64,000 nt of DNA, from positions 32,001 through 96,000 of IMG/VR virus record IMGVR_UViG_3300032093_000021. The stretch is one strand, 5' to 3'. The translations under genes were made by a program, and so were the position numbers. Positions 22,372 through 35,656 of this stretch are shown piece after piece. This DNA is from a virus. Position 1 is the stretch's first letter. Each line of letters begins with the position of its first letter. The notes under the pieces were generated by a model, which saw only the letters and a list, made by a program, of their open reading frames with translations, ran no database searches and was not told where the DNA came from.

Positions 22372-24153
22372 TTATATTAAACCATTATCTATTATTATCC
22401 AATTATTAGGTGCCGAAGTTAAAATACTTTTAGCAGAACTTGCGATGTTGTTGTAGTTCTGTGAAACATTCATCTGAACATTCGGTTTCAGAGTCAATAC
22501 TGACCAATCTATTAACAGATTATTGTAGTTTGTTATACTAAAACTACTTCCTGATAAAAATCCACTCAAGTTTGTAACATTTATTGGTTTCCATGTTTGT
22601 AAAGTTTGGTTAAAATTTGAAGAATTTCTAAACATATCCTCCATTGTAGTTACACCTGTGACATTCCAAGTTGATAGATCTTTGTTAAATTGTGAAGCTC
22701 CTTCAAACATACTTTCCATAGTCGTAACTTTAGATACATCCCACGATCCAATTGGTTGATTAAATGAAACAGCATTTGTAAATACCCCTTCCATCAAAGT
22801 GACAGCACTTGTAGTCCAACCACTTATATTGGGGGATCCTAAATTATTAAAGATTGATGCCCCATTAAACATATTTCTGAATGTTTTAACATTACTTACA
22901 TCCCAATTACTCAAATCCTGATTAAACATAACCGCACTTCCAAACATTGATCTCAAACCTTGACTGAAACCACAACAAGTATTCACTTTTTTTACATTCC
23001 AATTACCTAATGGTTGATTAAATTTGTCTGTTGAGAAAAACATATGTCCCATCTCTTCAGCCGATGAAGTATTCCAATTATTTATAGTTGGAGACGAATT
23101 ATTGTTGAATTTTTTTGCATCATGGAACATATAACCAAAGAATTTTACTTTTGAAACATTCCATTTTCCAATGTTCCTATTAAAGTTATATGCATTATAA
23201 AACATATAATTCATTTTAGTTACACTTGATGTGTCCCAATCATTTATTGTATCACTTCCGTTATTGTCAAAATTTGTTGCCCCTGCAAACATAAATTGCA
23301 TATCAGCACAAAATAATGTTTTCCAATTCCCTATATTTTTATTAAATTGAGTTGCACTTTCAAACATGCTTTGCATCGTGGTTACATTGTTTGTTGTCCA
23401 ACCACTTAAGTCTGAATTGAAAACAGTTGCATTTTTGAAGGTATAACTCATGTTATTTACCTTTGAAGTGTCCCATTGGCTTACCTTATTTATACTTGAT
23501 AGACTTGTACACGACTCAAATAAACTTGAAAACGATGTCATACCTGAAGTGTTTAGGGTATCAACAACATTCGGAATATTGAGATTGGTACAAGCCGAAA
23601 AATGCCCTGTTGAATTCCCGAGCTGTATGGGTCCCCACTTTAAAATTTCCAATAATTTTAATCTATCGGAAGGATCTATTTTATAGTTCCACCCTATAAA
23701 GTTACCCGGAAAACTATAAATTTTTATTTCATATACACCAGTTGATGCATAGGTATGTGTTTTTTTAACATCATTCCAATTTTTTATATTATCCCAAGGC
23801 CCCCCATCTCCCCAATCAACATATATGTCGTAAATACCTGAAGATATTAGTGGTAATTTCACTTGATTATTACTGGTTGTTCCGGGTTTGGTTGTATCTA
23901 TTTTGAAATGAAAATATTGCGGTTCTTCAATTTCTATTTCAGCGCATAGATTGTTATTGTCTACAATTTTGAGTTTTGTGGTGCCAATAGGTATATTATT
24001 TAAGATCAATGGACAATTTGGTAACGTCAATTGAGAAACAGTCGTTGAGGTTATTTCAGAGATATAATAATCCTGATTGCCATAAATGACTATAGGATCT
24101 ACCAAGTTATTGGCACCAATATCATCCAAACAAATTGCAACTTCAAATGTCAT
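22372..24153 (-). CDS. BspA-family (DUF285) leucine-rich-repeat protein with PKD-like domain
   Basis: VDWGDG...THTY...GVYEIKI PKD-like motif, then many WxVSxVxxMxxMFxxAxxFNxxL/I repeats. Confidence 0.9.
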   Translation of the reverse strand: MTFEVAICLDDIGANNLVDPIVIYGNQDYYISEITSTTVSQLTLPNCPLILNNIPIGTTKLKIVDNNNLCAEIEIEEPQYFHFKIDTTKPGTTSNNQVKLPLISSGIYDIYVDWGDGGPWDNIKNWNDVKKTHTYASTGVYEIKIYSFPGNFIGWNYKIDPSDRLKLLEILKWGPIQLGNSTGHFSACTNLNIPNVVDTLNTSGMTSFSSLFESCTSLSSINKVSQWDTSKVNNMSYTFKNATVFNSDLSGWTTNNVTTMQSMFESATQFNKNIGNWKTLFCADMQFMFAGATNFDNNGSDTINDWDTSSVTKMNYMFYNAYNFNRNIGKWNVSKVKFFGYMFHDAKKFNNNSSPTINNWNTSSAEEMGHMFFSTDKFNQPLGNWNVKKVNTCCGFSQGLRSMFGSAVMFNQDLSNWDVSNVKTFRNMFNGASIFNNLGSPNISGWTTSAVTLMEGVFTNAVSFNQPIGSWDVSKVTTMESMFEGASQFNKDLSTWNVTGVTTMEDMFRNSSNFNQTLQTWKPINVTNLSGFLSGSSFSITNYNNLLIDWSVLTLKPNVQMNVSQNYNNIASSAKSILTSAPNNWIIIDNGLI

Positions 24154-24155
24154 AT

Positions 24156-25523
24156 TTATCCTATTTTGAAAACATATCCGTTTATTCCTGTTGAATTATT
24201 ACAACTCAAATGTTTCTTTTGGTTGATTGATGCTTTGAAGTCGCAATTCACAATTTCAATAATAGTACAAAATTCTTTCTTAATGAAATCTCCATACTTG
24301 TCAATTACTTCAATCAAATATGTCCCTTCAGGTTGTCCGACCAAGGTTTTTTGGTTTACTTTGTCTCCTGATGGTGTTGTCCAAGTGTAACTATAAGGCT
24401 GTGTCCCACCTGTGACATTTACTGATAATACACCTAAAGTTGTGCTTGTTTGGTTAATAACATTACAACTAATCCCCATTTCAAGAATTGTTATAATTTC
24501 ACACCCTGTTGCTGTAGATCCTGGTGGTATTGGAGATGGTGCTGATGAGCAATCTTGACACTCCAAATCATTACAATCTGATGTGATTATAACACCACCT
24601 ATGTCATTTAGGTTAATTACCTTTGTTTGTGGTGATGGTTCGGGTATAACAGTATAACAGAAATTAGATGGATTTATACTTAAAGTAAATCCAATATTAT
24701 ATTTGGTTCCTGATACTAATTTATATATTAAATTATCACAACAACCTGAAACATAATTACTTTTTGGAATAACAGGGATAACTGGATTACAGACTGAGTT
24801 ATTACATCCGTTCGCCAAAATACTGCCGGCGGTTGCAATGGATGGAGATGGTGAATCAGCCGCTATTAGAGAATAACATTGTCCACTCAATAAAACAGTG
24901 TCACCAATTTTATAAACATTAGATTCCGGTATACTAAGTATAACAATATCATTTGTCTTACAATTTTCAAATGGGTGATCTCCTTCCGCAACGTAACAAT
25001 TTGTATTATCTTGAAGACAAGAATCACAATCCTTAAATCCGTATTTACCTATTACATTATTTACCGATAAAGTCGGAACTGATACCACAACAGGTGTCAC
25101 AACTTCAAAGCATTGAGTAAATACATTAAAATTTTGATCGGTAACTTGTAAGTTCAATACCATTCCAACAGGTGCCGCAAAACCCAAAATTGTTGTTAAA
25201 TTATTAGCCTTAAAAATGGTTATTTCATCACCACAACATTTTTTCAAATATACACTCGTTGAACAAAAATCAACTTGATACAAAGCTGGATTTGGAGTAC
25301 TCAAAGAATATGGTCTGAATTTATTTTCAGAAGCAAGGTATCCTGATTCACCTAATGTTATTGTGCATGCCGAATTAGTAAAAGCTGTGCAGTTTACTAT
25401 CAAATTAGGATCGTCATCAAAATTACAACTCAAATAATAGTCATATGAATTAACCCAATAGTTAACGCACGCAACTTGTTGTGAATCTATGTCAAACCCT
25501 AACTTTGTTTTAATACACGACAT
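24156..25523 (-). CDS. Cys-rich putative fibre/adhesin protein with C-terminal SprB-like repeat
   Basis: Repeated CC/CxxC modules; GVLSVNVTGGTQPYSYTW...GTYLIEVID. Confidence 0.6.
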   Translation of the reverse strand: MSCIKTKLGFDIDSQQVACVNYWVNSYDYYLSCNFDDDPNLIVNCTAFTNSACTITLGESGYLASENKFRPYSLSTPNPALYQVDFCSTSVYLKKCCGDEITIFKANNLTTILGFAAPVGMVLNLQVTDQNFNVFTQCFEVVTPVVVSVPTLSVNNVIGKYGFKDCDSCLQDNTNCYVAEGDHPFENCKTNDIVILSIPESNVYKIGDTVLLSGQCYSLIAADSPSPSIATAGSILANGCNNSVCNPVIPVIPKSNYVSGCCDNLIYKLVSGTKYNIGFTLSINPSNFCYTVIPEPSPQTKVINLNDIGGVIITSDCNDLECQDCSSAPSPIPPGSTATGCEIITILEMGISCNVINQTSTTLGVLSVNVTGGTQPYSYTWTTPSGDKVNQKTLVGQPEGTYLIEVIDKYGDFIKKEFCTIIEIVNCDFKASINQKKHLSCNNSTGINGYVFKIG

Positions 25524-25757: not shown

Positions 25758-28700
25758 TTATACACAAGGTATACATGTTCCTCCGTAAGAGAAGAATCCA
25801 ACCGCATCTATTGTTCCATAGTTACAACTTGTGTTTTCTCCTAAACTCAAATAAGAGGTTCCATCAAATAGAGTCCCATTACTATTGTAATATGTTTCGC
25901 CAGGTTGTAAACCAGCAATTGGGGTGTAAGTATAAAGTGTTACAGTACCTGATCCACTATTTCCACAACCCGCAGTTGGGTTAATATAAGCAATGAAAGA
26001 AAATGATGGTAGATTGTTTTGTGTTGGTGTTTGTGTGGGAGTTGGCGTCGGTACCGGTACTGAACAACAAGGACCATAGATTAAGGATGAAATTGGTCCT
26101 GATACCGATCCTTTCAAAATGCAACCTGCAATAACATCAGGTCCTATTGACACTGACTGATTTTGTGGTGTTCCATCACAATCTATCCAAGATACCGTAC
26201 CGGGTGTATCTACATCAAAACTAGCACCATTAGCACAAGAACATGTAGTTGGTGTCGGTGTTTGTGTTGGAGTTTTTGTTTGAGTTGGAGTATTAGTAGG
26301 AGTTTTAGTATTAGTTGGAGTATTTGTTGGCGTTTGAGTATTAGTAGCGGTATTGGTAGGCGTATTACTATTAGTTGGCGTATTTGTTGGCGTTTGAGTA
26401 TTAGTAGCGGTATTGGTAGGCGTTTGAGTATTAGTAGCGGTATTGGTAGGCGTATTACTATTAGTTGGCGTATTAGTAGGAGTTTGGGTGCTTGTAGGTG
26501 TTAAGCTTGGACAAGGTCCTGAAATTGAATTTAATATTCCAAATGATCCGCTTGGTATCAAAACTTGTACCCATGTGTAAACACCTGAAACTACAGGAGA
26601 TATTGGGTTTTCATTATATTGATATAAAATTCCGGAACCTAAACTTGATCTTAATTCCCATCTATTATTTGATATTGACCAAAACACATTGAATGTAAAT
26701 ACGGATGATTGGTCTGTAAAAGTAAATGATTGTTTTCCATTTACTACAGATCCCGGACTCACATTAATTGATTGTGATCCAACAAAAGTCTCTGATGCGA
26801 TTTGGAAACAGATTCCGCCTAAAGTATTTGATGGAGTATTCGTTTGTGTTGGTGTAGGAGTGCTTGTTGGTGTGTTTGATGGATCAGGAGGACAAGACGA
26901 ACAATCTGTTCCAAGTATAGATACGACGGAATTCAATACCGCATTAGTTGATATTGATTTTTTGCCCTCATAATACACACAATATGATTGATTATCAATA
27001 ATCGCATTCATCGTGTATCCCGAATCTATAGTAATTCCTGAAATTTGAACTTCTTCCGCCACGTAGAAATAAGCATTTGTTGCACAATTTCTCAAAGAGT
27101 TGACCTGACTACATTCAAGTTTTTCATCAAAAATCTCATAATTAACAGAACCTGTAAAACACAAACCTCTATAGATGTTTGTTGGTGTTACTGATGGGGT
27201 TGGTGTTGGTGAGGCGGTTGGTAGAGTAGTTGCACTCAGCGTCATACCTATACCAAAGCATTTTTGTGTTATTGTGGGTGTTTGCGTATTTGTTGGTGTT
27301 GGAGTTTGGGTGGTGGTAGGTGTAGGAGTGTTAGATGGACCCGGGATATTACAATCAAATATCGCATCAAAGTCAAAAACATCACATGGATTAACCGGCG
27401 GAATTGGTGGACAAACTCCTTGTGTAAGTTCGTCACATAAATCAGGACAAGAACTATTACATGGTGTTTTTCCGAATAGTATACAACTTCCACCTAATGA
27501 GCTTGATAGACACCATTTATTGATACTATAATATATGTATCCTACTGACGTAGTTCCTCCGGTATAAAAGTCATAAGTTAAATATGTTCCGGCTATTACG
27601 TATTCACCATCAAACGGAGTTACACCATTTGTGTTCAAACAATAAACATTTGGACACTGATCAGTCGGACTTGGTGTTGGAGTATTAGTAGGTGTTTCTG
27701 TAGGAGTTGAAGTATTAGTGGGAGTATTGGTTGGAGTTTCAGTATTAGTGGGAGTTGGGGTGTTAGTTGGTGTGTTTGTTGATGTTTCGGTGTTTGTTTG
27801 AGTTTGAGTATTGGTTGGAGTGTTAGTTGATGTTTCGGTGTTTGTTTGAGTTTGAGTATTTGTTGGAGTATTAGTTGGGGTTTCTGTCGGAGTTTCAGTA
27901 TTAGTGGGAGTATTGGTTGGAGTTTCAGTATTAGTGGGAGTATTGGTTGGAGTTTCAGTATTAGTGGGAGTATTGGTTGGAGTTTCAGTATTAGTGGGTG
28001 TATTGGTTGGAGTTTCATCCGGGGTAGGTGTATTAGTTGGAGTTTCAGTATTAGTGGGAGTATTGGTTGGAGTTTCAGTATTAGTAGGGGTATTGGTTGG
28101 AGTTTCAGTATTAGTAGGGGTATTGGTTGGAGTTTCAGTGGGTGTATTTGTGGGCGTTTCTGTTGCAGTTGGAGTATTAGTCGGAGTTTCGGTTGGAGTT
28201 TCAGTATTAGTAGGTGTGTTAGTAGGTGTTGGTGTAGGACAAGTTATAGATTCACTTGTTAAGCAGTTAACACAAGATGAATAAAAAGTTGATGATATTG
28301 AGGTGTATAACGGTAACCCTATTTCATTAGTTATAACCTCAGCACAACCTGAAAATGATGTGGTATCCAAATAATAAACTTCTCCGACTGAAAGTTCTCC
28401 GGGTATGTTTGATACATTAAATTTATTATTTTCATCACAACAATCCTTAAACGAATAAAAAAAAGGTAGTGGCGATTCTGTTGGGGTTGGTGTGTTAGTA
28501 GGTGTATTAGTTGGAGTTTCAGTATTAGTAGGTGTGTTAGTAGGTGTCGGTGTAGGACACGGACCAATTGCCGAAAATAAAATATCCCCCGTAAGAGTGC
28601 TCGGAGATCCAAAGTCGTCGCAGTTACAAAAATACTGAGTTTCAAGTGGTCCAATCGTTAATAAACCTATAACGCCAGGATCACAACCATAATATTGACC

Positions 28701-29069
28701 TGTAGAAGTACTTCCGAGTTGATTTTGGGCAGAATATTCAGTACATGTGTTACATACCGGAGTTACTGTGGGTGTCGGTGTCGGAGTAGATGACGGACAA
28801 GAACCACCATCAGAGTAAAAACTTGCAGATGCGGTTGTCTTGAAATCGGATGTATAGTAATATATATCAGGAATTCCAAAGTCCGAGTCGTAACATTGGG
28901 ACGCTTGGTACAAACCTGCAGAATCAAAGTATTCTGTCACTAAAACTCCCAAACAATTATAATAATCAATATAAACACGTCCGTTTATAAAAGGAGGAGT
29001 TCCACTATTCAAGACCGCAGCGGATATATCTGCAGAATCTATAGAAATATTCAATATATTACATGCCAT
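25758..29069 (-). CDS. Cys-rich modular protein with long Thr/Pro mucin-like linkers (putative fibre/adhesin)
   Basis: 1103 aa; globular Cys-rich modules separated by (TPTNTETP)n tracts; no signal peptide. Confidence 0.75.
26250..26500. repeat. Thr/Pro-coding tandem repeats
   Basis: 30-nt-based units such as cgtttgagtattagtagcggtattggtagg recur near-identically. Confidence 0.85.
27665..28240. repeat. 30-nt tandem repeat array encoding [10 protein letters not shown]
   Basis: agtttcagtattagtgggagtattggttgg is exact at 27891, 27921 and 27951, near-exact at 27981 and 28041-28130. Confidence 0.9.
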
Positions 29070-29085
29070 AAATTAAACTTCAATA

Positions 29086-30066
29086 TTATAAATAATCCGA
29101 ATTTTGTTTTTGAAATAAAGATTTCAAAACTTCAGTATATTTTATTGTGGAACTTCTTTTATCAACGTATTCAAAAAAGTTTTCATTTTCCCTAAGTTTT
29201 TGAATAGGGTCACATTCAATAAATTCTCCTTTAAAAAATTTATTATTTTTTTCTATTTCAAGGACTCCAGCCATATGTAATATTGGTTTTTTATAGTAAA
29301 TATCAATATCATCTGTAGCCCACGAAAAATCCAAATCCTCAATTATTTTTGTTTCTTTTTTTAAACACCATAAATTCCAAATCAATGCCCACATTTCAGC
29401 AGTCCAAACTTGGATCCCTTTAGATACCGGATGAGTATTTGTAAACTCCACTAAATAGTTATACAGGCTATTTGAATCATTATATATTTTGAACCAATTT
29501 TTATAATTTGTTTTTTTTATTATATACTGACCACCTCCTGTATTATCATTATTTTTAATTACACAATCCAATCCGATACCAAAAATATCTATCATTCCAT
29601 TGATGAATTCATTACTTTTCAATCCATAATTTTTTGAATACAGGTCATCGCAATATTTAAGATAATCGTAAGATAAATAAGATTTTGTGTCGGCTAAATA
29701 ACATACATTGTCTTTCAGGTATTTTTCATAATTAGGTTTTTCCCGGAAAATAATGTCCGCATCATGTAAAAAAAAACACTCACCATATTTTGGAAAACTT
29801 TTTAACCATTGTGAAATCAAATATGGTTTTATACTTGGAATATAATTTTTAGTGTCTCGTTTATCTTCATAAAAATGAACATTGAACCCTTCTTTTCTTA
29901 ATTCCATAGCTCTTTTGGATGGTTTGTTTGTGTTTACCATACCAAAAATCATATGTATATCTGATGGGTTTACACCTTTTTCAACAAAATTATGACTATA
30001 AACTTCGCACTGCCAATGAAAATACTGAACATCAGGTTGTGCGGTTACATAAATTAATTTGGACAT
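29086..30066 (-). CDS. GT-A fold glycosyltransferase resembling peptidyl-serine/hydroxyproline O-glycosyltransferases (GT96/GT95-like)
   Basis: Colinear motifs YFHWQ, YIPSIKPYLISQWL, LHDADIIF (DxD), GGGQYII, WTAEMWA, ILHMAG. Confidence 0.7.
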   Translation of the reverse strand: MSKLIYVTAQPDVQYFHWQCEVYSHNFVEKGVNPSDIHMIFGMVNTNKPSKRAMELRKEGFNVHFYEDKRDTKNYIPSIKPYLISQWLKSFPKYGECFFLHDADIIFREKPNYEKYLKDNVCYLADTKSYLSYDYLKYCDDLYSKNYGLKSNEFINGMIDIFGIGLDCVIKNNDNTGGGQYIIKKTNYKNWFKIYNDSNSLYNYLVEFTNTHPVSKGIQVWTAEMWALIWNLWCLKKETKIIEDLDFSWATDDIDIYYKKPILHMAGVLEIEKNNKFFKGEFIECDPIQKLRENENFFEYVDKRSSTIKYTEVLKSLFQKQNSDYL

Positions 30067-30132
30067 ATAAACTAAAAAATAATATTTTATGTTTCAATCT
30101 AAATAGAATATTCTATGATATATTTATGATAT

Positions 30133-30312
30133 ATGAAACTTTTGAAAACTATACAAAAATTAGTTGAAGACGCAGAAAGAGATTATTATATCGCTTGTGA
30201 TAGGTGTGCTGATGAAAAAACAATTAAGAGATTAGAAAAAAATTATTTAGATAGTCTAAAACTGATGGAAAAAATAAATAAAATAGATACACCAAAAAAA
30301 GAAAATCTATAA
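30133..30312 (+). CDS. small plus-strand protein (59 aa, not in ORF track)
   Basis: [59 protein letters not shown]; fills the 30066-30307 gap and is preceded by TATTTAT (30121-30127) on the same strand. Confidence 0.65.
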
Positions 30313-32628
30313 TCCCCCATCTATTATAACCCAATTATAAGGACTTCCTGTAAGAGTGTTTCTACCTGATTGTCCTGCAACAGTATACTTTATAGTTCCA
30401 AAATTTATAGTCAATCCGGATTTTAATATCTTGCTTGACCAACTATTTAATAAACTATCATAATTTGCAGTTGAATAGTTTGAGAATGTTTTACCTGTCA
30501 TAAATCCTGTAAACGCAGTAACAGAAGATGCTGACCAACCACTTATAGGTTGGTTGAAAGCGATTGCATCATTGAACATATTAGTCATGTCCCTAACATT
30601 ACTAACATTCCAAGAATCTATTGGTTGATTGAATAATGAAGCACCCCTAAACATAGAAGTCATGTCTGTAACATTTGAGACGTTCCAACCGGATATTGAG
30701 GTAGATCCGGAATTGTTGAAAGATGAGTTTGATGCAAACATGGAATTCATGTTTGTTGCGGCAGATGTATTCCAACTACCGATATTTTGGTTAAACCCTG
30801 AACATGAAAGCATGGATGAAAAATTAGTCACCTTAGAAGTATTCCAGCTACCAATCGGTTGATTGAAACTTGTCCCTAAAAAAGTTGACCCAAAATCAAC
30901 AACGTTGCCCGTACTCCATCCACTTATTGAAGGGCTTCCTCCATTATTAAACGCAGATCCGAATGTTCTTCTAAAAAAAGTTGCCGCGGAAACATTCCAA
31001 GCTCCGATATCTTGATTGAATGGTGAACTGGCAAATGTGCTATGAAATCCATTACTGTTTGCAAACGAAGTTGTGACATTTCTTACATCCCAACTACCTA
31101 TGGGTTGATTAAAAGATGTTGCATAAAACATATGACCCATTTGAGTTGCCGCGGATGTTGTCCAACCACTAATAGAAGGGTTATTATTATTGTTAAATAA
31201 TGTTGCTTGTCCAAACATATAACCGAAAGCCTGAACTTTGGATACATTCCAAGAACCAACATTCCTATTGAATTTGACCGCATTGAAAAACATATAATTC
31301 ATGGCAGTGGCCGCAGAAGTAACCCAATTGTTAATTGAATTATTACCAGCATTATCAAAATTTGCAGCATTTTCAAACATCGTATTGAAGGTTGTGACTT
31401 TTGATGTATCCCAATTACCGATATTTTTATTAAACGTATTACAAGATGAAAACATTGATGCCATGGTTGTTACCGCGGATGTTGTCCATCCACTCAAATC
31501 GTCGTTAAAGAATGTACATCCTTGAAACATATTGCTCATGTTTGTAACATTTGAAGTGTTCCAAGAATTGACATTATTTATTGTAGTGAGACTTGTACAT
31601 GATCTAAACATTTGGGTCAGGTTTGTAGATCCACTTAAATTTATTACATCTGTTGTTCCTGTAAGTCTTAAATTGGAACAACCATAAAAGTAAGACCCCA
31701 AAAATGTCGCCCCTGTTGATTGAAGTTGTACAGGTCCCCACCTATTAACATGTAACATTTTTAACCTATCTCCCGAGTTATTAAATCTGAAACCTCTGAA
31801 ATTTCCCGGATAAGCGTATACCGTAACGTCATAAATTCCGGGAGTTGTATATGTATGTGCGGTTAATGGACTATTCCAAGTTGTTATATAATCTGTAGGG
31901 CCCGAATCTCCCCAATCAACTATCATATTATAAGTTCCCGCACTAACTAATGGAAGTGCAAACTGATTTGATGGCGAACTACCGACACTAGTTAATGTTG
32001 TGTTTATCCTCGCTTGGAAAGATGGTAAAATTACAGTTGGTGTTGGAGTTTGAGTTGGAGTTTGGGTTGGAGTTTCTGTATTAGTTGGAGTATTAGTTGG
32101 GGTTTCTGATGCTGTTTGTGTTGGAGTTTCTGTATTAGTGGGTGTTGGTGTTTCAGTATTTGTTGGTGTTTGAGTTGGGGTTTCTGTGTTAGTTGGAGTG
32201 GGTGTTTCGGTATTTGTTGGTGTATTGGTTGGTGTTTCGCTTGATGTTTGAGTTGGTGTTCCAGTATTAGTTGGGGTTGGTGTTTCTGTATTTGTAGGTG
32301 TGTTTGTTGGAGTTACACTTGATGTTTGAGTTGGTGTTTCAGTATTAGTTGGGGTTTGTGTTGTTGTTTGAGTTGGGGTTACAGTATTTGTAGGGGTTGG
32401 AGTGGGGGGCGAAATACAGTCATCAATCAATATCGCCTCACAACCAAATGAATCAATTACTTTTATTAAAACGGCAGGAGAATTAGTGAATGTGGATGAA
32501 AGATTTATATTTATTGGTAAAACTATATAGTTACCATAATCTTCGCACACACTTTGATTTACATCACACACAATTACTTGATATGGCGATGTACCGGTGA
32601 CACTTAATATTTCAATTGACGCGGGTAT
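30307..32628 (-). CDS. BspA-family (DUF285) repeat protein with Thr/Pro linker and PKD-like domain; probable AUA start
   Basis: Paralog of 22372..24153; the frame extends upstream of the GTG at 32571 to ATA at 32628 ([22 protein letters not shown]), restoring the N-terminal module shared with 25523..25744. Confidence 0.85.
32036..32410. repeat. Thr/Pro mucin-like coding repeats
   Basis: (TPTNTETPT)n tract of ~120 codons. Confidence 0.85.
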
Positions 32629-32653
32629 ATTTTAAAATTTAAAAATTTATAGT

Positions 32654-35600
32654 TTATGAAGTACACGGACTACATCCTCCCGCACAATATCCTGTCCTAC
32701 AATATTCACTTGATATTGAACTAAAAGTTCCGGGAGAATACGCTGCGAACCCTCTAATACAAATACACTGTCCCGCCGGTACAATATGACTTGCGGATGT
32801 TATTGAACTACATAATTTGCCCGTGATTGATTGAGTTCCGAATCCTAGCGCTTGATATGTGATACAAGGTTCAAATTGAAACACCGGTGATTCCGCACTT
32901 GTACTTGAAGGACATATCGCCTTAATTTTGAAATCAATTGGGAAATAATCTTTAGGAGTACTATTAACTGCACTTGTAACGTCCACCGTTAGAGGTCCGT
33001 AACTACTTATTGATACAAATGTTGACGAATATGTTGATTGGTAAGATTTTTTGTAATAAACTATCGCATTGGTTACACAACTATTTGAACAAGCTCCAAC
33101 ACTAAATGTCAGTTGGTACTGTCCGGATATAGTTGTTTGAACAGAAGATATGGTTGGTGTACAACAAGCTCCGCCGCATCCCGCAATATTAGTTTGCGAT
33201 GGGGTTATTGATGTGGTAGGTGTCTGTGTTTGTGTTTGAGTTTGCGTTGGTGTAGATGTTTGAGTTGTGGTTTGAGTTGGGGTTTGAGTAGGTGTTGGTG
33301 TTTGAGTTGAGGTTTCAGTCGGTGTCGGAGTGGGAGTTTGACTTGTTGGTGTTTGTGTGGGAGTTTCATTGGGGGTTGGCGTAGGTGTAGGAGTATTACT
33401 TGTAGAAGTCTGAGTTGGCGTATTAGTTGGTGTTTCTGTATTGGTTGGAGTGTTAGTTTGTGTTGGAGTGTTTGTTGGAGTTTCGGTATTAGTAGGTGTG
33501 TTTGTTGGAGTTTGAGTGTTGGTGGGTGTATTAGTTGGAGTTGGTGTTGGTTCCACACAACATATATCATAATCAATTTCCAAACTAACTTTTATATTTT
33601 TGTTAGACAATAAATAGGAACAATCAGAACTTACTTTGATGGTATTGTTGGTCACATCTATTATAACAGAACCAATACCCGTAATTCCTTCTAATACACT
33701 CTTCAATCCATTGATATAATCTTGATCCGAAGGATAAGACAATAAACTTGTAGTTGTGAATAAATTTTTAGTATAAGCAGTTCCAGCAACATCAACCTCT
33801 AAATAAAATACCGCACTATTTAGTTTACAATTAGTTTCACCTGAAATCAGATCAAGATAACCTTGATTTAACATTTCAAACATCCCATTTTTTGTTGCGG
33901 CAGTTTGGGTGAAAATACCATCACATACTTCGTATGTTTGATAAGAAAAATATTTTTTTTGACAAACAACGTTGGTATTTTTAGTTGTTGAACAATTATT
34001 TGAATCTGTTAATTTTAAAGAGTATGTTCCAGCAGTTAAACCTGTCACATATATACCGGTTTGTCCATTAACGTTTGAAGACCATTGAAATGTGTATGGT
34101 GGAACTCCTGATGTAATAAGAGATGTGATAGTTCCTTCTGAACCAGAACCACAACCCGTGGATAATAATGTAAAATCAACTGATTGAGTAGTTTTGACTT
34201 GAATGACATTTTTTTGAGAACATCCTGTAGAATCCTTGACTTCTAAGTTATAAATTCCTGCCGTTAATGCATTGAAGGAATGAGTAGTGTTTGATGTATT
34301 TAAGAATGTCAATCCATTCAAGTAATATGAGTAAATTCCTGGTGTATCTACATTTATAGTAACACTTCCGTTAGATAACCCACATGAAGCATCTGAAACA
34401 GAAGTAGATATATTAAATTTATTTGTATTGGTTATTGTAAAGGTGTTTTGGTAAATACAAGCGCTAGGATTAGTGATTTTTATTGTATATACACCTGTAC
34501 TAAGATTAGTAAATGTTCTTGAAATGGAATTAGTTGTGACAGATTGGGTGTTACCTGATGAATCAGTCAGTTGGTATGTATAAGGCGTTAATCCGCCAAG
34601 TAAAGTTATATTAACACTTCCGTCATTACTATTACAAGTTGATCCGCTTGGTGTTAAGTTCACAACACTAAAAGCATCAATTGTGGATAAGCTAGTTGTA
34701 CCAGTAACACTACACAAACCCGCATCAACAACCACAACTGTATAACTTCCTTGTCCTAAATTACTAAATGCTACAGATTGTGAGTAAGTTATATCGTAAG
34801 CACCATTTGAAAGTGAATAATAATAAGGTCCGGTCCCCCCGCTTATATTAACAATTATTTGACCATCTGATTGAAAGCAACCAGGTGATGTAGTTATGTA
34901 ATTGATGATTGATAATGGATTAACACTGCCAACAACAGTTGACTTTGTTTTCACACATCCTTGAGAATCTGTTATCGTAACGTCATAAACGCCCGGTGTC
35001 AATCCTGATATAGATGGTGTTGTCTGTAGATTAGACCACAAGTAACTATAAGGTGGAGTCCCTGTCTGACCGGTAACATAAATTCTTCCTGTTGGGCTGC
35101 CAGCACAAAATGAATTATTAACAACGAAGAACCCAAAATCAAGTTCATCAGATCCTTGAACAATGCAAGACGAAGTTGTTCCTGAACACCCCCCCTGATC
35201 AAATACATTAACATAATACGTATCGGCGGAAAGATTTGTAAAATAATAATAACCAATTACTGAAGATGCCGAAGTGATATAACCATTACTTAAACTATAA
35301 AGATAGTAATTAGCATTTGAACTTGTTGTGGTTGCCGTAACTCCGAGTTGTCCATTGTTCAAACCACAACTTGTATCAATTGATTCAGTATTTAAACAAA
35401 CTCCTGACGATATTGATAAGGAAACATATTGTGTGTTGGGGGATCCAGGTGTGGTAGAATCTGTAATAAGAACTAAATAAGTACCGGCCGATAAGTTTTG
35501 TCTTAATGAAGTCGTAACAGGAGCATCAATACCCAAATTTGGAATTTGCCAATCAATAATATATGGTGACACCCCTGATGTTGGAGTCAAACTCAAGGCC

Positions 35601-35656
35601 CCAACATTTAGATTCTGACAATCTCCAGTAACCGAACTATTAAATAAAATACTCAT
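32654..35656 (-). CDS. SprB-repeat adhesin-like protein with Thr/Pro linker and Cys-rich C-terminus
   Basis: About seven C...G.I.V...GG..PY.Y.W/L...NL..G.Y.V.V.D..GC repeats, then a TPT tract. Confidence 0.8.
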   Translation of the reverse strand: MSILFNSSVTGDCQNLNVGALSLTPTSGVSPYIIDWQIPNLGIDAPVTTSLRQNLSAGTYLVLITDSTTPGSPNTQYVSLSISSGVCLNTESIDTSCGLNNGQLGVTATTTSSNANYYLYSLSNGYITSASSVIGYYYFTNLSADTYYVNVFDQGGCSGTTSSCIVQGSDELDFGFFVVNNSFCAGSPTGRIYVTGQTGTPPYSYLWSNLQTTPSISGLTPGVYDVTITDSQGCVKTKSTVVGSVNPLSIINYITTSPGCFQSDGQIIVNISGGTGPYYYSLSNGAYDITYSQSVAFSNLGQGSYTVVVVDAGLCSVTGTTSLSTIDAFSVVNLTPSGSTCNSNDGSVNITLLGGLTPYTYQLTDSSGNTQSVTTNSISRTFTNLSTGVYTIKITNPSACIYQNTFTITNTNKFNISTSVSDASCGLSNGSVTINVDTPGIYSYYLNGLTFLNTSNTTHSFNALTAGIYNLEVKDSTGCSQKNVIQVKTTQSVDFTLLSTGCGSGSEGTITSLITSGVPPYTFQWSSNVNGQTGIYVTGLTAGTYSLKLTDSNNCSTTKNTNVVCQKKYFSYQTYEVCDGIFTQTAATKNGMFEMLNQGYLDLISGETNCKLNSAVFYLEVDVAGTAYTKNLFTTTSLLSYPSDQDYINGLKSVLEGITGIGSVIIDVTNNTIKVSSDCSYLLSNKNIKVSLEIDYDICCVEPTPTPTNTPTNTQTPTNTPTNTETPTNTPTQTNTPTNTETPTNTPTQTSTSNTPTPTPTPNETPTQTPTSQTPTPTPTETSTQTPTPTQTPTQTTTQTSTPTQTQTQTQTPTTSITPSQTNIAGCGGACCTPTISSVQTTISGQYQLTFSVGACSNSCVTNAIVYYKKSYQSTYSSTFVSISSYGPLTVDVTSAVNSTPKDYFPIDFKIKAICPSSTSAESPVFQFEPCITYQALGFGTQSITGKLCSSITSASHIVPAGQCICIRGFAAYSPGTFSSISSEYCRTGYCAGGCSPCTS
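33195..33555. repeat. Thr/Pro/Gln mucin-like coding repeats
   Basis: ([14 protein letters not shown])n tract. Confidence 0.85.

Follow-up and report, generated by a model that had tools for sequence, protein, structure and literature searches.

The window analysed here, a stretch of 64,000 nucleotides covering positions 32,001 to 96,000 of the IMG/VR virus record IMGVR_UViG_3300032093_000021 (G000 in the following), contains the gene P0001 (29086..30066, minus strand), which is located among large genes for Thr- and Pro-rich proteins. Its product of 326 amino acids (aa) is probably a soluble, cytoplasmic GT-A glycosyltransferase (GT) that O-glycosylates Thr or Ser residues in the Thr/Pro tracts of virion proteins. 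The assignment draws on the fold and the conserved residues of the enzyme, on the gene order and on a comparative association of the enzyme family with Thr-rich virion proteins.

P0001 could be assigned to phrog_4417, a PHROGs family of unknown function, with an E value of 5.4e-64 (residues 6-316 against positions 3-290 of the 293 profile positions). No match to Pfam (E ≤ 1) or NCBIfam was obtained, and the sole PDB sequence match at E < 0.01, a 57-residue stretch of the splicing factor AAR2, was taken as a chance hit. Metagenomes contain more than 1000 close relatives, and 804 cluster representatives were counted. A first-pass annotation made from the letters of the window alone had compared five motifs of P0001 with the plant peptidyl-serine galactosyltransferase SERGT1 and the hydroxyproline O-arabinosyltransferases (HPAT). 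These motifs are present in the order described, namely YFHWQ (15-19), YIPSIKP (75-81), DADII (102-106), GGGQYII (176-182) and WTAEMWA (221-227). Across 60 homologues of 30-68% identity, D102-x-D104, H264, K279, Y75, G178 and W226 never vary and Q180 hardly does; the 81 longer, fused homologues likewise have an invariant DxD motif and a nearly invariant His.

An AlphaFold model of P0001 built on the 60 homologues reached a predicted local distance difference test score (pLDDT) of 97.4, and the modelled fold is that of a GT-A glycosyltransferase (Rossmann-like, with DxD). GT8-type features, i.e., the fold, the DxD motif and a C-terminal His and Lys, are present, and the conserved Asp/His/Lys pattern would fit the metal and diphosphate site of retaining GT8-type enzymes. 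By inspection, the protein has no membrane segment or other hydrophobic segment, and the chain begins directly with the first beta-strand. Among solved structures, the closest in fold are retaining GT8-type enzymes (glycogenin, the Skp1 alpha-galactosyltransferase Gat1, LgtC and GlyE), from which P0001 differs by an identity of only about 10%, template modelling (TM) scores of 0.41-0.47 and the lack of a Glyco_transf_8 match; compared to glycogenin it is also around 60-90 residues longer.

The nearest annotated predicted fold, taken from the ESM Atlas, is a chlorophyte HPAT/ShK cluster with PF23452 in 100% of its members. The alignment has a TM score of 0.73 by query over 292 residues with a root-mean-square deviation of 4.1, both sides being predicted models, and in two adjacent viral clusters PF23452 is likewise found, there in 10% of the members. 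Among the 60 homologues scanned against Pfam, neither PF23452 nor a GT8 model was matched. The PF23452 hidden Markov model (HMM) gave no match in the genome of P0001 (E ≤ 10), in five phage genomes (E ≤ 1) and in 27 further records (E ≤ 0.1), all of which carry a phrog_4417-type gene, although this is weak evidence because the control genomes held no members of the family. The PF23741 (DUF7164) HMM did not match in the P0001 genome either, with control genomes likewise devoid of members, and a profile search of longer proteins returned fused bacterial and viral forms only and did not reach plant SERGT1. The likeness to plant extensin-glycosylating enzymes proposed in the first-pass annotation thus appears at the level of the predicted fold, whereas the sequence searches do not support membership in GT95. 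The nearest annotated predicted fold is that of HPAT and not that of a DNA- or lipopolysaccharide-modifying GT, the outcome that had been named as speaking against the proposal.

P0001 is situated between P0003 (30307..32571) and P0002 (25758..29069), whose start lies 16 nt past the P0001 stop codon, and P0004 (32654..35656) adjoins P0003. All four open reading frames (ORFs) were found on the minus strand. Thr/Pro tracts were defined by 20-aa segments with at least 60% Thr, Pro and Ser. The three neighbours are the proposed acceptors, and their main tracts comprise 128-210 residues with 58-96 Thr each. P0002 is a Cys-rich, modular, fibre-like protein of 1103 aa with a match to phrog_15511 only; its six tracts comprise 477 residues in total, including 186 Thr. 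The largest (residues 267-476, 27642..28271, minus strand) has 96 Thr and 41 Pro and is encoded by imperfect tandem repeats of 30, 60 and 90 nt, and the second long tract (residues 848-950, 26220..26528, minus strand) has 42 Thr. P0003, 754 aa long from a GTG at 32571, consists of a small N-terminal domain, a tract with 60 Thr (residues 48-187, 32011..32430, minus strand) and five DUF285 (BspA-like) repeats (E 1e-98). P0004, with 1000 aa, carries five SprB repeats (E 6.5e-24), a tract with 58 Thr (residues 698-825, 33182..33565, minus strand) and a Cys-rich C-terminal domain. Over all tracts, the imperfect tandem DNA repeats have periods of 18, 30, 60 and 90 nt.

A Thr plus Pro fraction of 0.72-0.78 per 40-aa segment is reached in P0002, P0003 and P0004 only, and the other 46 of the 49 ORFs of the window stay at or below 0.45. 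The long tracts that the first-pass annotation had seen in the three large genes around P0001 are therefore real and confined to these genes within the window. In the whole 140-kb record five tract-bearing ORFs could be identified, the three in the window and two more. The earlier statement that the proteins lack a signal peptide agrees with the inspection of P0001, P0002 and P0004, in which no N-terminal hydrophobic stretch of that type was seen. P0002 and P0004 contain 45 and 35 Cys residues, respectively, located in small repeated modules between the tracts, a richness that is odd for proteins folding in a reducing cytoplasm.

The co-occurrence of the transferase with tract-bearing genes, a check that the first-pass annotation had suggested, turned out to be strongly positive and extends far beyond the lineage of the phage. 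Among close relatives of P0001 (48-59% identity), an ORF with a Thr/Ser/Pro tract is located at a distance of up to 10 kb in 73 of 80 IMG/VR loci and is the immediate same-strand neighbour of the transferase in 67 of them; most of the exceptions are loci ended by the end of the contig. Since these 80 loci stem from one lineage, they count as roughly one observation.

A tblastn search with P0001 (E ≤ 1e-3) detected the family in 77 of 50,697 phage records, mostly from phages of Gram-positive hosts. Eleven distant phages from different genera were inspected among these GenBank records: Enterococcus phages phiFL1A and VPE25, Lacticaseibacillus phage R3.3, Clostridium phage phiCTP1, Mammaliicoccus phage vB-SscS-F1, Lactobacillus phages Iacchus and 521B, Chryseobacterium phage MA9V-3, Lactococcus phages 1706 and bIL285, and Arcanobacterium phage TPWB06. 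In all 11, poly-Thr tracts are present on capsid, tail-tube or Ig-like proteins encoded near the transferase; in most cases they form a tag at the C-terminus of the major capsid or major tail protein. The tagged genes lie directly upstream of the transferase gene in nine phages; in VPE25 and bIL285 a tagged tail-tube gene follows a few genes downstream. In phiFL1A, for instance, the head protein gp45 ends in TTTTTKPTTTTTKPTTTTTTT and the tail protein gp50 in TTTTTSTTTTTTSSTTTTTTT, with the transferase gp51 directly next, and in Lactococcus phage 1706 the C-termini of orf10 and orf13 read T9-10HHD and orf14 is the transferase. The adjacency of transferase and tract is seen in strictly lytic and in temperate phages alike. 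In TPWB06 (L218:4158-4920) and vB-SscS-F1 (L096:7197-7919), a T9 run forms the end of the major tail gene, and a short ORF coding almost entirely for Thr overlaps the end of the tail gene in the former and follows after a gap in the latter. These short ORFs may give rise to a frameshift-extended form of the tail tube with a longer tag.

For matched controls, homologues of three tagged proteins were retrieved with the untagged cores as queries, and tag and transferase were scored per locus. Both were present at 12 loci and neither at 15 for the phiFL tail-tube homologues, the corresponding numbers being 14 and 64 for bIL285 tail-tube homologues and 36 and 2 for R3.3 capsid homologues. Pooled over the three families, both features occur at 62 of 143 loci and both are missing at 81, and no locus shows just one of them. 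In trees of the core sequences, eight independent contrasts were found in total, five of them well supported, and all are concordant. In the reverse direction, among the matches listed for IMG/VR DNA encoding T8 runs, 54 loci with a run of at least T7 in an ORF were obtained. The transferase is present in four of these and directly adjoins the poly-Thr ORF in each.

In 11 complete genomes of smaller phages the family is present and PF11397, the GT60-like N-acetylglucosamine (GlcNAc) transferase family, is absent; GT2 is absent from all three such phages checked, and phiFL1A has no other annotated transferase. The family can therefore work without a GT60 initiator, and since it appears to act alone in these phages, it is likely to be an initiating polypeptide O-glycosyltransferase there.

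The record of P0001 has a length of 140,164 bp, an estimated CheckV completeness of 47% and a G + C content of around 33%, with nearly all genes on the minus strand. It codes for baseplate J and gp25-like proteins, a tail sheath, gp32, UvsX, DnaB/primase, a sigma factor and a ribonucleotide reductase, a gene content that identifies the source as a large contractile-tailed phage. We regard it as an uncultured freshwater phage of a jumbo lineage with Bacteroidota-type hosts. For 20 kb of the window, megablast revealed no close relative in the phage collection. P0001 lies inside a block of large fibre- and adhesin-like genes downstream of the baseplate genes. Between 21 and 50 kb, Pfam and PHROGs searches gave DUF285, SprB, Hoc-like and baseplate families only, in agreement with the earlier view of P0001 as the only enzyme-like gene of this structural locus.

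Outside the window, a second glycosylation locus could be identified (G000:C1:126035-134138, corresponding to window coordinates 94035-102138). It contains a GT60-like PF11397 GlcNAc-transferase of 422 aa (G000:132870-134138, E 1e-69) and, separated from it by four ORFs without a Pfam match, an 800-aa fusion of an FkbM methyltransferase and HtrL_YibB (G000:127126-129528). Directly adjoining, a 354-aa protein with two Thr/Pro tracts is encoded (G000:126035-127099). The tail sheath (G000:C1:109377-112715, 1112 aa, Phage_sheath_1 and a C-terminal Phage_sheath_1C) bears a Thr/Pro-rich stretch as well, so the tail surface may be decorated in addition to the fibres. The sequence P0160 proved to be a fragment from the epimerase family and was uninformative.

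The second locus is the basis of the alternative that survives best, although we consider it unlikely. According to it, the virion is glycosylated, but P0001 only extends the glycan in the jumbo phage and the GT60-like enzyme sets the first GlcNAc on Thr. GT60 enzymes place the first GlcNAc on Skp1 and on trypanosome mucins, and Gat1, a close structural match of P0001, is an extending enzyme of the Skp1 pathway. Besides the strong PF11397 match in the same genome, PF11397 is present in all five large freshwater relatives searched, and a P0001-type domain is fused to PF11397 in three proteins. Against a mere extender role stand the 11 smaller phages, which have the family and the poly-Thr tags without PF11397, and the fact that the tract-bearing genes of the window surround P0001 and not the GT60-like gene.

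The fusions provide further information on the family. The additional parts of the 81 longer members are mostly second GT domains (six Glyco_transf_7C, three PF11397 and three GT2, plus O-FucT, GT25 and GT1); F5/8-type-C lectin domains and a radical-SAM/SPASM module are also among the fusion partners. The domain composition of these fusions marks the family as responsible for one step in a glycan synthesis that has several. The metagenomic protein P0278 (1915 aa) combines a P0001-type domain (53% identity) with GT1, an FkbM methyltransferase and GT2 and thereby unites in one chain types of parts that are split over two loci in the phage record.

In the Sphingobacterium chromosome CP058555.1, a fused member of 760 aa is encoded beside a C39-peptidase ABC exporter, the outer-membrane factor OEP and a GT2 (L247:3728-11197). 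The same locus codes for a 297-aa protein that has a double-glycine leader (...LTTILGG) and is rich in Ser/Thr at its C-terminus; the locus may serve a glycosylated exported protein or bacteriocin. Among the structural neighbours of P0001 there is a PqqD-family cluster. The exporter locus, the radical-SAM/SPASM fusions and the PqqD-family cluster point again to polypeptide acceptors, and the substrates of the bacterial members may be exported peptides or proteins.

Somewhat less probable still is that the tracts are plain, unglycosylated linkers and that the enzyme modifies a host envelope polymer, for receptor masking or superinfection exclusion, or a small molecule. Phage transferases that change host surface glycans are well known (review in PMC12619734), the best fold matches of P0001 include LgtC and WbbM, and in Lactobacillus phage Iacchus a glycerophosphodiester phosphodiesterase gene adjoins the transferase. 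This explanation leaves the joint gain and loss of poly-Thr tags and transferase (no discordant locus among the 143) as well as the direct adjacency in both strictly lytic and temperate phages unexplained, and P0001 has no membrane segment by inspection, whereas envelope glycans are membrane-built. A glycosylation of hypermodified phage DNA, as by the T4 alpha- and beta-glucosyltransferases, is highly improbable even though various phage transferases are known to glycosylate DNA (cited in PMC12619734) and a thymidylate-synthase-family protein is encoded in the genome, because this protein looks like an ordinary ThyA (E 1e-65 to genuine ThyA, no hydroxymethylase among the top matches), no DNA-hypermodification gene was found in the record, the transferase lies in the structural and not in the nucleotide-metabolism module, the temperate carriers of 36-40 kb have no annotated hypermodification genes, and the link to poly-Thr tags would have no reason.

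Several points weigh against P0001 as a Thr/Ser O-glycosyltransferase of the flanking virion proteins. The lipopolysaccharide-modifying GT8 enzymes LgtC and WbbM score equally to the protein-modifying ones, and the fold therefore does not settle the acceptor. Thr/Pro tracts are common as flexible linkers and need not carry a glycan. In the same block, a DUF285 paralogue (22372-24153) and an SprB/Hoc-like protein (24156-25523) have no tract, which is therefore not a fixed part of the adhesin modules. The tracts of the window are internal and alternate as T-x-T-x with Pro, Asn, Glu or Gln, unlike the pure poly-Thr C-terminal tags of the matched controls, and the extension to the window fibres is therefore something we infer. 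The independent contrasts in these controls are few, with sign test values of p ~0.06 for the five well-supported ones and ~0.008 for all eight. In the jumbo phage, the GT60-like enzyme could be the true initiator. Finally, the case for all family members is a comparative and structural one.

For the preferred function of P0001 as a virion O-glycosyltransferase, a mechanism can be proposed in which acceptor, donor, linkage and benefit would be as follows. P0001 would be metal-dependent, probably retaining, and active in the cytoplasm of the infected cell before assembly. It would transfer a sugar from a nucleotide-sugar donor to the hydroxyl groups of Thr (or Ser) in newly made virion proteins. 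The first acceptors would be the flanking proteins P0002, P0003 and P0004, and the insertion in the tail sheath and the 354-aa Thr/Pro protein are probably acceptors too. The globular adhesin modules, i.e., the SprB, DUF285 and Cys-rich domains, would then be connected by mucin-like linkers covered with glycans. In the jumbo lineage, extension or diversification of the glycan is probably the task of the locus that contains the GT60-like enzyme and the FkbM/HtrL fusion. The family probably works unaided in the small phages of Gram-positive hosts, with the poly-Thr tags at the C-termini of the major capsid and tail-tube proteins as its target. Shielding, stiffness and protease resistance may be the benefit, and the stiff, protease-resistant stalks suggested in the first-pass annotation are a speculation.

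Virion glycosylation by phage enzymes is known from mycobacteriophages, for which Freeman et al. 2023 is reportedly the source study. In Che8, Corndog and Myrna, phage transferases glycosylate the C-termini of capsid and tail-tube proteins, according to PMC12363180, PMC12619734 and PMC11256854. Common to both systems would be phage-encoded cytoplasmic GTs that decorate the own structural proteins, and the placement of the glycans on capsid and tail-tube C-termini corresponds to the position of the poly-Thr tags in the Gram-positive phages, a likeness that concerns the family and not the window. The enzymes belong to a different family: among the 77 records matching P0001 there is no mycobacteriophage, and the statement of the first-pass annotation on this point is borne out as far as BLAST-detectable relatives are concerned. 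By this tblastn criterion, P0001 shows no homology to the Che8 gp110 and Corndog gp38 transferases. Furthermore, the GTs of Maravista, a close relative of Che8, are encoded near the 3′ end of the genome, whereas P0001 lies inside the structural module, the presumed acceptors in the window are long internal Thr/Pro linkers of fibre and adhesin proteins, and the hosts are Bacteroidota-type and Bacillota instead of Actinomycetota. A literature search returned mycobacteriophage work and general reviews only, and in the papers searched neither the phrog_4417 family nor a combination of poly-Thr tag and transferase was described. New here would be the enzyme family and the acceptor architecture, phage virion glycosylation as such being already known and proven in mycobacteriophages only.

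With HPAT (GT95, PF23452) and SERGT1 (GT96), P0001 would share the initiation of O-glycans on hydroxy-amino acids of Pro-rich repetitive proteins, which in plants are the extensins. HPAT has a type II membrane anchor, acts in the Golgi lumen and uses hydroxyproline as acceptor and UDP-L-arabinofuranose (UDP-L-Araf) as donor. P0001, in contrast, has no membrane anchor and would be cytoplasmic rather than located in the Golgi, and its predicted acceptor is Thr and not hydroxyproline or Ser. The serine-rich-repeat adhesins of streptococci and staphylococci are similar in the cytoplasmic O-glycosylation of Ser/Thr-repeat stalks that project adhesin domains, and GlyE from this system is a top fold match. 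In their pathway, GtfA/B act first, followed by GT8 enzymes such as GlyE. It differs in being bacterial, in its accessory Sec export and in the initiation by a GT-B pair, and no GtfA/B homologue was seen in the phage. To the GT60 systems (Skp1 Gnt1 and the trypanosome mucin Thr-GlcNAc transferase, PF11397) there is a connection through the PF11397 enzyme of the same genome and the PF11397/P0001-type fusions elsewhere, but this enzyme has its own gene, located outside the window, P0001 does not belong to PF11397, and the smaller carriers lack the GT60 gene.

With regard to the annotation of the locus, the gene coordinates given earlier were retained for three of the four genes. For the middle gene, P0003, the codon at 32628 is ATA, and the first ATG, GTG or TTG in the frame is the GTG at 32571. 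The frame is open for 19 codons upstream of this GTG, as far as a point 26 nt after the stop codon of the preceding gene. The start of P0003 is thus uncertain, and a non-canonical ATA or ATT start or a device for translational coupling is conceivable. The 240-nt gap between this DUF285 fibre gene and P0001 is occupied by an ORF of 59 aa (30133-30312, plus strand), one of the very few plus-strand ORFs of the record.

For the family as a whole, we rather favour a general picture in which phrog_4417 is a widespread family of cytoplasmic phage Thr O-glycosyltransferases distantly akin to the plant extensin enzymes. Phages of Bacillota, Actinomycetota and Bacteroidota would use Thr tags or Thr/Pro linkers to mark capsids, tail tubes, sheaths and fibres for glycosylation, a GT60-type pathway would join in for the mucin-like coats of the jumbo freshwater phages, and the radical-SAM-fused or C39-adjacent bacterial members may serve secreted peptides. 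In mycobacteriophages, virion glycosylation shields the particles from antibodies. If the proposed function holds true, self-glycosylation would be a common trait of phages that infect three or more bacterial phyla, among them well-studied phages of Enterococcus, Staphylococcus, Lactococcus and Lactobacillus that are relevant to therapy, and could be read from the sequence as a transferase plus a Thr tag. It would bear on the immunogenicity, stability, mucus adherence and host recognition of phages, and since cultivable carriers exist, the question is directly testable. The pair of tag and enzyme would also represent a compact, portable system for cytoplasmic O-glycosylation in bacteria, and the family would provide an evolutionary link to the enzymes of plant extensin glycosylation.

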